Positions 12,353 to 18,026 of a stretch of 26,247 nucleotides of DNA are shown piece by piece; position 1 is the stretch's first letter; every line of letters begins with the position of its first letter. Location of the stretch: assembly GCA_049472355.1 (NCBI GenBank), contig JBLIRP010000056.1, positions 1 to 26,247 on the forward strand. Direction: 5' to 3'. Source of the stretch: a bacterium (GTDB taxonomy: Bacteria; SZUA-182; DTGQ01; JAFGSM01). A model generated the notes under the pieces. The model made no database searches. It worked only from the letters and a program-made list of their open reading frames with translations, and had not been told where the DNA came from. The position numbers were made by a program, and so were the translations under genes.

Positions 12353-13546
<1,194 letters not shown>

Positions 13547-13619: not shown

Positions 13620-13925
13620 ATGAGCCAAAGGATAAGAATTCGATTACGGGCTTATGATCATAACATCCTGGATCAATCAGCCGGAGAGATCGTAGAGCGG
13701 GCAAAAAGCACCGGGGCGCGGGTGGCGGGGCCGATCCCTCTGCCGACGCAAAAGACCCGCTACACCGTATTGCGGTCGCCGCACATTGACAAAAAATCCA
13801 GGGAACAGTTCGAGATCCGTACGCATAAACGCATCCTGGACATATTGGAGCCGACCTCGCAGACGGTGGATGCACTGATGCATCTGGATCTTCCCGCCGG
13901 TATCGATGTGGAGATCAAGCTGTAG
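13620..13925 (+). CDS. rpsJ: 30S ribosomal protein S10 (uS10/NusE)
   Basis: Motifs [32 protein letters not shown]. Confidence 0.99.
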
Positions 13926-13966
13926 GATCGATGACTTAACGATTTGGTCGTGTGAATGGAGTGGCA

Positions 13967-14596
13967 ATGAAGCTCGACATAATGGACAGAAACGGTCAGC
14001 AGACGACTCAGGTCGACCTGCCCGACGACATCTTCGCTGCGCCGGTGAAGGAACACCTCATCCACGATGTGGTGCGCTATCAGATGGCAAAGCGGCGGCG
14101 GGGCACCTCGGCGACAAAGAACAGGTCCGCTGTTCGCGGCGGCGGCATCAAGCCCTGGCGTCAAAAGGGCACGGGCCGGGCACGGGCCGGGACCATACGA
14201 TCCCCCCTGTGGGTCGGCGGAGGGATCGTTTTCGGACCTCAGCCCAGGGACTATTCATTCAAGGTAAACAAAAAGATCAGGAAGGGCGCCATCAAATCCG
14301 CACTGAGTTTCAAGGCGCAGAATCAGGATGTGCTGATGGTGGAGGATTTTGATCTCGATGAGGGGAAGACCCGCACGGCTGCGTCATTCCTTCGTGAGTG
14401 CGGCTTTGCAAGGGGTGTCCGGGTGCTGATCCTGGTGGACGGCGGCCACGAGAACCTCAAGCGTGCCAGCCGCAATATTCCCGGGGTTATGGTGCTCGAC
14501 GTACAGGGGCTGAATGTCTACGACCTCCTCTGGCATCATAAGCTCCTCATCATGGAACATGCATTACCTCGGTTGCAGGAGGTCCTCGGTTCATGA
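13967..14596 (+). CDS. rplD: 50S ribosomal protein L4 (uL4)
   Basis: [14 protein letters not shown]...SPLWVGGG loop. Start placed at ATG 13967 (GGAG at 13958-13961). Confidence 0.97.
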
Positions 14597-14883
14597 AATC
14601 TCCGTATGAAATAATCAAGGTGCCGTTCATGACTGAAAAGAGCAACAAAATGAACGAGGCATACAGCAAGGTCACCTTCATCGTGGATCGCTCCGCCACC
14701 AAGGCGGAGATTGCAAAGGCCGTGAGCGAGATCTTCAATTGTCATGTGGTACGGGTGAACTCGATCCGGATGGAGGGGAAAAAGAAACGGCTCGGTGTAC
14801 ATCAGGGGAGACGGTCCCACTGGAAAAAGGCCATCTGCACCCTGGCGAAGGGCGAAAAGATCGATGTGGTTGAGGGTATATAA
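14593..14883 (+). CDS. rplW: 50S ribosomal protein L23 (uL23)
   Basis: Motifs P..TEKS, F.V...ATK.EI, WKKA. ATGA overlap with rplD. Confidence 0.96.
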   Translation: MKSPYEIIKVPFMTEKSNKMNEAYSKVTFIVDRSATKAEIAKAVSEIFNCHVVRVNSIRMEGKKKRLGVHQGRRSHWKKAICTLAKGEKIDVVEGI

Positions 14884-14910
14884 CAGACTGGGACTCTGAA
14901 GGGATTTGCT

Positions 14911-15738
14911 ATGGGCATCAGAACATACAAGCCGGTAACCTCAAGTCAGCGCTTTCGGACAGGCTTCACCTTTGACGAGGTTACCAAGGAAAAACCGGAA
15001 AAATCGCTCACCAAGAGCCTCGCCAAGACCGGCGGGAGAAATGCGAACGGAAGGATCACCTGCCGTCACAAGGGTGGCGGTCAGAAGAGAAAATACCGGA
15101 TGATCGATTTCAAACGCGACAAGGATGGGGTGCCGGCCCGGGTCGCGAGCATCGAATACGACCCGAACCGCTCGGCCAGGATCGCGCTCCTTCACTATGC
15201 GGACGGGGAAAAGCGATACATCCTGGCCCCCCTTGGGTTACAGGTCGGGCAACGGGTGCTCTCAGGAGAAGGCGCCGAGATCGAGGTGGGCAATTCCCTC
15301 CCCCTGCGCAAGATCCCCCTCGGGACCATCGTGCATAACATCGAGATGAAGATGAACAAGGGGGGACAAATCGCCCGAAGCGCAGGGGCAGGCGCACAGA
15401 TCCTTGCCAAGGAAGGGGACTACTGTCAGGTTAAGCTCAATTCCAGCGAGGTCAGGATGATCCACCTGAATTGCAGGGCAACCATAGGCCAGGTGGGCAA
15501 CGTGGAGCATTCGAACATATCGATCGGCAAGGCAGGCAGGTCCCGGTGGCTCGGCATCAGACCAACGGTTCGAGGTGTGGCCATGAATCCCATCGACCAT
15601 CCCATGGGCGGCGGCGAGGGAAGGTCATCCGGAGGCCGCCATCCCTGCACTCCATGGGGCAAACCCACCAAGGGGTATAAGACGAGAAAGAACAAGACAA
15701 CCGGTCGTTACATTGTAAAGCGCAGAGGCACTAAGTAG
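14911..15738 (+). CDS. rplB: 50S ribosomal protein L2 (uL2)
   Basis: Motifs [13 protein letters not shown] and [17 protein letters not shown]. Confidence 0.99.
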
Positions 15739-15751
15739 AGGGAGGCATGTC

Positions 15752-16036
15752 TTGGCACGTTCACTGAAAAAAGGGCCATTCATTGATCACCACCTCGCGA
15801 AAAGGATCGAGCAGATGAATCAGACCATGGACCGCAAGGTGATCAAAACATGGTCGCGGCGATCAACCATTATCCCTGAAATGGTCGGCCACACCATTGC
15901 GGTCCACAACGGGAAGAAGTTTATCCCGGTCTATATCACGGAAAATATGGTCGGTCACAAATTGGGGGAATTCGCCCCCACCAGGACCTTCAGGGGACAC
16001 GGATCAAAGGCGGAGAAGGCGACACGGGTCAAGTAG
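15752..16036 (+). CDS. rpsS: 30S ribosomal protein S19 (uS19)
   Basis: Motifs [30 protein letters not shown] start with GGAGG SD. Confidence 0.98.
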
Positions 16037-16070
16037 AAAAACAGCGCACCTTTTTTTAAAGGGATACGAG

Positions 16071-16421
16071 ATGGAGTCACGAGCAACCATAAAATATCTC
16101 AGGACATCGTCAACAAAACTCAAACCGATCCTGGATCTGGTCCGGGGTAAAAGGGTGGATGAGGCGTTGACCGTACTCAAATTTACCAACAAGAAGTCTG
16201 CCCGGCTGGTGCACAAGGCCATCCGTTCAGCCTATGCCAATGCAGAGCAACTCCCGGATGCAAAGGATGCGAATCTCGAGGAGCTTTACATCGCAGAGAT
16301 CTTTGCCAATCAGGGCCCGACCCTGAAACGTTTCATCCCCAAGGCACGGGGACGGGCGGGGAGGATACTGAAACGCACCAACCACATCAAGATCACACTG
16401 AGAACGATGGGGAACAATTAA
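16071..16421 (+). CDS. rplV: 50S ribosomal protein L22 (uL22)
   Basis: [15 protein letters not shown]...KRTNHI. Start at ATG 16071 (the ORF-track extension is spurious). Confidence 0.95.
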
Positions 16422-16441
16422 GCCGGATTGGAGGAAACGAT

Positions 16442-17086
16442 TTGGGACAAAAGGTACATCCGATAGGATTTCGATTAGGGATTATCAAGACATGGGACTC
16501 ACGATGGTTCGCCAAAAAGGACTATGCCCAATTTCTCCATGAAGATCTGGAAATCCGTAAATTCGTCCGCGACCGGTTAAAGAGTGCGGGTGTATCCAAG
16601 GTGGAGATCGAACGGGCCTCGGACCGAATCAAGATCAATATTCACAGCGCGCGCCCGGGCATCATCATCGGGAAAAAGGGCTCCGAGGTCGATAAACTGA
16701 AAAACGATATCCAGCGCATGATCAAAAGACAGATCTTTATCAATATCCTGGAAATCCGAAAATCCGAGGTTGACGCGCAGTTGGTGGCTGAAAACATCGC
16801 CATGCAGCTTGAGAAACGGGTGGCATTCCGCAGGGCAATGAAGAAGAGGGTCTCCATGGCATTGAGGTTCGGCGCCGAAGGGATCAAGATCGCGTGCGCC
16901 GGCAGGTTGGGTGCGGCGGAGATGGCGCGCAGGGAATGGTACCGTGAGGGGAGGGTCCCCCTGCACACCCTGCGGGCGGACATTGATTATGGATTCGCCG
17001 TTTCCAAGACCACCTATGGGAGCATCGGGGTAAAGGTGTGGATCTTTAAGGGAGAGGTTGCGCACGAGCAGTCGATCCAGCAGTAG
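16442..17086 (+). CDS. rpsC: 30S ribosomal protein S3 (uS3)
   Basis: Motifs [40 protein letters not shown] start. Confidence 0.99.
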
Positions 17087-17128
17087 GGCGACCTCTCGTG
17101 TGGTGTATGACGGAAGGAAGAACGTACT

Positions 17129-17533
17129 ATGTTAATGCCAAAAAAGATTAAATATCGCAAGCAGCAGCGGGGGAAAATGAAGGGCAAGGCGCAACGGGGG
17201 AATGAGCTTCATTTCGGTGATTACGGACTCAAGGCCCTCACCCCCGGGTGGGTCACCAACCGCCAGATCGAGGCCGCCCGTATCGCCATTACCCGCTACA
17301 TAAAGCGGGGGGGGAAGATATGGATCAACATCTTCCCTGACAAGCCGATCGGACACAAGCCGGCAGAAACACGGATGGGCAAGGGCAAGGCCACGCCCGA
17401 CACCTGGGTGGCAGTGGTCAAACCGGGCAGGATACTCTACGAGATGGAAGGCATCGGCATTGATGAGGCGCGGGAGGCCATGAGACTGGCCTCGCACAAG
17501 CTGTCCGTACAAACGAAATTTGTCCACCGTTAG
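17129..17533 (+). CDS. rplP: 50S ribosomal protein L16 (uL16)
   Basis: Motifs [26 protein letters not shown]. Confidence 0.98.
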
Positions 17534-17546
17534 AAGGGAAACGAGC

Positions 17547-17753
17547 ATGAAAGCAGACGGGTTCAGGGACCTTTCAGACGAGGAGCTCAGCCATAAAGAG
17601 GCGGATTTGAGGGAGGACCTCTTCAAGCTCAACTATCAGCTTGCAACCGGGCAGTTGGAAAACAAGGCCCGGGTGAGACAGGTAAAAAAGGATATCGCAC
17701 GTCTTCTGACGGTCTGCCGTGAGAGGATTCAGGCAAAGAGGGATCAAGGATAA
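17547..17753 (+). CDS. rpmC: 50S ribosomal protein L29 (uL29)
   Basis: LFKLNYQLATGQLEN...KKDIAR. ATG at 17547. Expected gene order. Confidence 0.95.
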   Translation: MKADGFRDLSDEELSHKEADLREDLFKLNYQLATGQLENKARVRQVKKDIARLLTVCRERIQAKRDQG

Positions 17754-17768
17754 GAAGAGGGTTACGCG

Positions 17769-18026
17769 ATGGGAGACAGGGGCAGTCGTAAGAAGAGAAT
17801 AGGGATCGTGGTGAGCAACAAGATGGATAAGACGGTGGTGGTGGAGGTGGAACGACGATTCACGCACCCGGTCTATAAGAAGATCATCAAACAAAAGAAA
17901 CGCTTCAAGGCGCATGATGAACAAAACGAATGCGCGGTCGGAGACAAGGTGGTGCTCATGGAAACACGCCCGATGAGTCGTGATAAGCGATGGCGGGTCG
18001 TCTCCATTATGGAAAAGGCAAGTTGA
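17769..18026 (+). CDS. rpsQ: 30S ribosomal protein S17 (uS17)
   Basis: Motifs [29 protein letters not shown]. Confidence 0.98.

Follow-up and report, generated by a model that had tools for sequence, protein, structure and literature searches.

Departures of single genes from ribosomal protein clusters have been described for rplJL, rpmJ, rpsN and secY in the available sections of PMC8046335, and these include replacement by an out-of-operon isoform. The highly diverged r-protein paralogues discussed in the accessible part of PMC3353972 are the zinc-motif ones. The move of rplC (uL3) described here is an order-wide variant of this known kind of rearrangement. As in the replacement of rpmJ1 by rpmJ2, the gene was deleted from its cluster, its neighbors were rejoined, and the sole copy left was an isoform outside the operon that bears a signature sequence, in repeated independent events. 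The operon copy was gone, the sole copy lay elsewhere, and the signature of the stand-alone copies was absent from the operon copies of kin. The two cases differ in that rpmJ is small and non-essential, with both copies present in 40 of 115 genomes, whereas uL3 is large and essential, and two-copy intermediates were not found in related genomes. No genome with two full rplC copies was encountered among the 251 (0/240 with a match), 41 or 31 searched, counts from which second copies may have been dropped by MAG binning. The relocations of rplJL (Haemophilus influenzae) and secY (Bacillus selenitireducens) given in the accessible text of PMC8046335 are similar in that an essential gene left its cluster and was kept elsewhere; however, those are presented there as species-level events without long-distance transfer, whereas the rplC move was order-wide, recurred in other phyla and was linked to a sequence type. 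A search of the openly available literature yielded no report of an rplC located away from the S10 operon; event table S6 of PMC8046335, a source available in part, may bear on this.

The window, i.e. the whole stretch of 26,247 nt analyzed here from genome G000, contains an rpoBC-str-S10-spc-alpha cluster. All 29 window proteins submitted to NCBIfam (rpmJ and the cut rpsK were left out) were named in canonical order (rpsL, tuf, rpsJ, rplD, rplW, rplB and so on), and the series continued to secY, adk, map, infA and rpsM. The str operon led into the S10 operon, with 73 nt between tuf and rpsJ. Compared with a canonical S10 operon, ten genes were present in the same order, but the second slot, between rpsJ and rplD, held no rplC (Table 1). 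Both statements of the sequence-only reading on this point, that rplC is missing and that the other S10/spc genes stand in canonical order, were therefore correct. In a background of 80 named loci, rplC was followed by rplD in 77; two of the remaining three stopped at a contig edge, and the third was another stand-alone rplC.

Table 1. Positions of the rpsJ-rplD join, its surroundings and the relocated rplC. Coordinates are those of the window unless a contig is named.
Feature	Position	Strand	Assignment and remarks
tuf	12353..13546	+	TIGR00485
rpsJ (uS10), 101 aa	13620..13925	+	NF001861 and TIGR01049 over cut-off; stop TAG
rpsJ-rplD spacer, 41 nt	13926..13966	+	old rplC site, without ORF
GGAG ribosome-binding site	13958-13961		inside rpsJ-rplD spacer
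rplD (uL4), 209 aa	13967..14596	+	TIGR03953 over cut-off; ATG start
operon part after rplD	14593..18026	+	NCBIfam
rplC (uL3), 213 aa	G000:C129:1536-2177	+	PF00297; no internal stops
predicted sigma70 promoter	C129:1364-1392		TTGACA-17-CATAAT, TG before -10 box; upstream of rplC

The whole-assembly search with PF00297 that had been proposed as a check returned a single match in 3.49 Mb (148 contigs), located on contig C129 (48.3 bits, cut-off 22). Residues 5-210 of this protein aligned to a solved uL3, and the loop was ungapped; TIGR03625 was over its cut-off for the uL3 of G004, G006 and G013. That rplC has been relocated out of the S10 operon is close to certain. As a separate matter, two-piece uL3 matches ca. 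50-70 nt apart were noted in three other genomes (G055:C2:771322-771996, G061:C2:276659-277330 and G034:C140:2984-3631), representing an in-frame insertion or a frameshift.

The extent of the rearrangement was examined in 13 genomes of the order, of which 12 had rplD and 11 had rplC. The direct rpsJ-rplD join was present in 12/12 genomes with rplD, with a spacer of ca. 25-51 nt and no rplC; in the thirteenth, G004, the rpsJ-rplD region was unassembled and rplB was cut at the contig start. A single rplC was found in 11/13, always apart from rpsJ and rplD. Six other members of the class (G014-G019) kept the canonical rplC-rplD order, and the comparison of synteny in nearest relatives that had been called for thus showed an order-wide join beside canonical class relatives. 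One further member of the class, G013 (85% complete, 5% contamination), had a stand-alone rplC in a bin without the S10 operon and was left out of the join counts. The GC3 of rplC was 0.70, compared to 0.65-0.73 in other r-protein genes, and a recent transfer of the gene was rejected for want of a GC3 anomaly. In a quick tree, the uL3 subgroups of the order matched the subgroups of the hosts and their S10 proteins. This match and the ordinary GC3 indicate that the move is old and inherited: rplC had left the S10 operon by the time of the order's ancestor, if not earlier, and has been vertically inherited since. In G019, a 318-aa ORF (L165:630-1586, C67) lay between rpsJ and rplC, with a weak nucleoside 2-deoxyribosyltransferase match below cut-off; the rplC-rplD gap of this genome was ca. 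250 nt.

Two readings without relocation were weighed against these data. The sequence-only reading had allowed for an assembly or editing artefact, in which rplC was lost from the contig by collapse or, as a binning error, C129 came from another organism. The S10 operon and rplC do lie on separate contigs, and none of the genomes seen from the order was closed. However, the sequence across 13900-13990, where a check had been suggested, was crossed by unbroken contigs in 4/4 public runs from three studies (one an RNA library), the evidence being Logan contigs rather than raw reads and X1 or X7 possibly stemming from the source study of the assembly. The contigs of runs X1 and X3 covered 13824-14064 with one and two other letters, respectively, that of the RNA run X7 covered 13866-14064 with none, and that of X8 covered 13824-14460 with 25 other letters and two gaps. 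With the join also present in all 12 separately assembled species, this part of the earlier reading is refuted. The uL3 of C129 is moreover 95% identical to that of G001, in line with 96% for uL4, and it tracked the host subgroups in the tree; an artefact is thus very improbable. A ribosome that has truly lost uL3 is less probable still, as had been anticipated. It would fit G007 (95% complete) and G002 (63% complete), which had no uL3 match, but G000 and ten relatives carry an intact rplC. The bin of G007, in which the rpsJ-rplD join is present, also had no match for the ligase that neighbors rplC elsewhere, and the ligase of G002 is cut at a contig end; a missing contig therefore fits the absence of rplC in both.

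In 10/11 genomes of the order, rplC was followed by a gene for a protein of ca. 697 aa, the start of which lay 3 nt past the rplC stop in G000. The G004 orthologue contained CoA_binding_2, Succ_CoA_lig and ATP-grasp_5 domains, and the protein is an acyl-CoA ligase, probably of the acdAB-like kind. Genes for DRTGG/AAA_26, PfkB (family f1 only), Formyl_trans_N, HAD and DUF1015 proteins were found downstream of it. The rplC-ligase-DRTGG cluster was seen in nine genomes, and the contig of G003 ended within the ligase. In G006, rplC stood immediately 5' of a HAD gene and a thymidylate kinase gene, with the ligase absent there, while in G013 the ligase-DRTGG pair and rplC were on different contigs. 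The idea that uL3 and the CoA ligase are functionally tied was found to be unsupported, given the arrangement in G006 and the other neighbors in other phyla. The ligase was not found in five class relatives (a search without a positive control), which left the insertion site unreadable in its ancestral state. A related gene pair flanked the rplC cluster at either end of C129 (G000:C129:1-752 and 13923-16689, minus strand; also at L154 and L155). Each pair comprised a Y/P/F-rich ORF of 132-158 aa and one of 770-790 aa, with signal-peptide-like starts, and the homologues in G003 had no Pfam hit.

The predicted promoter of the relocated gene lay 143 nt upstream of rplC in G000 and matched 11/12 consensus positions. 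An equivalent site was located in 11/11 genomes of the order, 87-372 nt upstream of rplC; the site in G006 had no TG, and those in G008 and G010 were one base off in the -10 box. The resulting 5' UTRs (87-372 nt) had no visible likeness beyond the promoter when compared by eye, unaligned. Conservation of the predicted promoter but not of the UTR downstream of it argues for a promoter function. The suggestion that rplC might have its own regulation has thus gained a conserved predicted promoter in all 11 genomes. From its single copy, this promoter and its essentiality, the uL3 of G000 is probably expressed and incorporated into the 50S subunit. A conserved leader RNA at rplC or rpsJ was also considered; the upstream regions of the relocated rplC and of rpsJ (11 loci) had no relevant Rfam match, and the candidate was dropped in view of this and of the variable 5' UTRs. 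Repeats were noted in two loci. In G008 (L159:47-376), a direct repeat of ca. 28 nt occurred twice in the long rplC 5' UTR. In G013 (L164:2161-2300, C226, minus strand), two related inverted repeats of ca. 50 nt lay just upstream of rplC, the second ending at the rplC ribosome-binding site, and an HNH gene was located 3' of rplC.

At least three other phyla show the same gap in the operon. The stand-alone rplC in the background set (L108; G031, a 'Deltaproteobacteria' MAG) was accompanied by an rpsJ-rplD join, and the join was present at 26/30 rplD loci sampled from the phylum of G031. Further joins occurred in G133, G135 and G089 of the phylum of G088, and in G079. On a host tree of 117 rows, the stand-alone state changed six times, and at least three changes for the stand-alone group were placed on starred branches. 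The order was positioned apart from the other stand-alone lineages in this tree, with its operon-keeping class relatives as its sister (SH-aLRT 83). The loci in the phylum of G031 resemble those of the order in their direct rpsJ-rplD join and in a stand-alone rplC with the type A loop described below. They differ in that rplC there is often beside a gene that we take, from its sequence, to be rlmE-like, whereas in the order it heads the CoA-ligase/DRTGG cluster. Because a host-tree branch with a support of 99 parts the order from that phylum, the locus event in each was separate. The sequence-only reading had called this a rare rearrangement. The rearrangement is real; the surprise was overrated, since the state is inherited throughout the order and the operon gap is shared by at least three further phyla.

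Neighborhoods of other kinds were also recorded. The rlmE-like gene adjoined the stand-alone rplC at 12 loci of the phylum of G031 and in G133, of another phylum (L207, L212, L214, L216, L217, L222, L223, L224, L226, L229, L261, L281 and L283). At seven Sphingobacteriales loci and in one Acidimicrobiia MAG (L081, L111, L112, L116, L118, L123, L125 and L063), rpsJ was ca. 1.8-4 kb from rplC-rplD, or none was found within 6 kb.

Residues 137-148 of G000 uL3 read HG-T-H-D-Y-H-R-H-G-G-S. They correspond to E. coli residues 134-145, as established by alignment to the solved chain 10px_1E (from its R144, probably a Thermus protein) and the numbering in the consulted part of PMC7345174. According to the same part of that paper, these residues belong to the extended loop that nears the peptidyl-transferase center, and tiamulin-resistance substitutions map there. 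The available text of a preprint (10.1101/2024.11.12.623245) reports that the loop length at position 150 modulates the tolerance of rRNA changes in the center. Loops of the form HG-T-H-E/D-x-x-R-H-G-G were termed type A and scored as [HR]G[TVA][HGS][EDT]xxR. Type A was found in 50/50 stand-alone copies and in 15/149 operon copies (199 typed loci); the pattern behind these counts was written post hoc and broadened to take in two variants, 'non-A' denotes whatever does not fit it, the loci were retrieved by their similarity to a query of type A, sampling is biased, and kin are not independent. The stand-alone copies comprised 11 from the order, G013, 34 from the phylum of G031, three from the phylum of G088, and G079; three of the 34 had less than 400 nt downstream, yet their genomes show the join. 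Within the phylum of G031, type A was present in 34/34 stand-alone and 0/6 operon copies. The six operon-keeping class relatives were all non-A (6/6), with a shorter HGS-x-x-H-R-x-P-G loop, and the nearest operon-keeping relatives in the class and in the phylum of G031 were mostly one residue shorter in the loop. The loop of 10px_1E has the same length as that of G000; since type A also occurs in 15 operon loci, the long form may be ancestral. In an independent-pairs test of location against loop type, no more than three pairs fell on starred branches, and the median p was 0.5. The association of location with loop type may be the new element in these data and is worth following.

Trees were calculated from 35-117 chosen rows of the 199 typed loci, and G024 was dropped from the later ones because of its long branch. 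The uL3 of G000 was 43-49% identical to that of the six operon-keeping class relatives and 58% identical to that of G025 and G028, which belong to other phyla; the corresponding values for uL4 were 43-50%, compared with 46% (G025) and 39% (G028). In a careful uL3 tree of 35 rows with the loop kept, a split of A versus non-A ran across phyla (94/84). An AU test of the order and its class relatives as one uL3 clade rejected this arrangement in the 35-row set with the loop kept (p = 0.048). It was not rejected in quick 64-row tests with the loop kept (p = 0.245 and 0.529), nor with the loop columns removed (p = 0.277 and 0.654). This is one marginal rejection among five tests, which is weak. The phylogenetic signal for a foreign copy rests largely on the loop. 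Of the earlier proposal of a horizontally acquired replacement, the relocation has stood; the foreign origin is plausible only, with AU p values of 0.048 with the loop and 0.277 without. Type A changed seven times on the loop-free tree, and the best such tree placed 14/14 stand-alone rows and three operon rows on one side, weakly (68/85). The AU tests neither rejected nor showed a single clade of all type A (p 0.196 and 0.2), of all stand-alone copies (p 0.193), or of all uL3 from the phylum of G031 (p 0.362 and 0.112). The stand-alone uL3s of G013 and G133, which are from different phyla, were sisters without the loop (99/93), which could represent a transfer or a misbinned contig.

Since uL3 is essential, a second copy of rplC must have preceded the deletion of the operon copy. 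The second copy would have arisen outside the operon, beside a strong promoter. The operon rplC would then have been cleanly deleted, leaving rpsJ with a spacer of 25-51 nt and the rplD ribosome-binding site, and the gene's own promoter, instead of co-transcription, would keep the supply of uL3 in step with the ribosome. Less certain is the source of the second copy, which may have been another uL3 isoform (loop type A), either horizontally acquired or an old paralogue that was kept. The loop and tree comparisons incline us, by little more than an even chance, to a foreign or old paralogous isoform rather than a duplicate of the resident gene. This reading explains the pairing of location and loop over several events and the other loop type of the sister lineage. 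Slightly short of an even chance is given to a native relocation, in which the resident rplC was duplicated or moved to another place in the chromosome, with deletion of the operon copy; type A would then be ancestral or convergent, and the class relatives would have changed later. Four of the five AU tests above do not reject the clade that a native origin predicts, the loop-free trees fit a native duplicate equally well, and some operon copies in other lineages are of type A. In the available sections of PMC8046335, the relocations of rplJL and secY likewise proceeded without long-distance transfer. On the other hand, a native origin leaves unexplained why one loop type accompanies three to six location changes and is absent in operon-keeping relatives, and the AU value of 0.048 and the uL3/uL4 identity pattern also stand against it. 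A broader form of the isoform reading is doubtful; in it, a horizontally mobile uL3 variant ('rplC2'), distinguished by its loop next to the peptidyl-transferase center, would have ousted the operon gene time and again, in three or four phyla at least. Its driver would be selection on the loop, e.g. by natural inhibitors binding the center or by a co-adapted 23S rRNA.

Even the rpsJ-rplC-rplD block, then, can break and stay broken throughout an order, and the join furnishes a clean gene-order marker for this lineage. A pipeline that looks for uL3 on the contig of the S10 operon will miss rplC, and a bin such as G007 might be taken for one without uL3. Should transfer underlie the association of location with loop type, this would constitute a rare cross-phylum swap of a large, essential core r-protein, and a natural experiment on the stoichiometry of uL3 outside its operon and on the role of the loop. 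uL3 is widely used as a vertical marker; were the 'rplC2' reading true, it would mislead phylogeny in the affected lineages.
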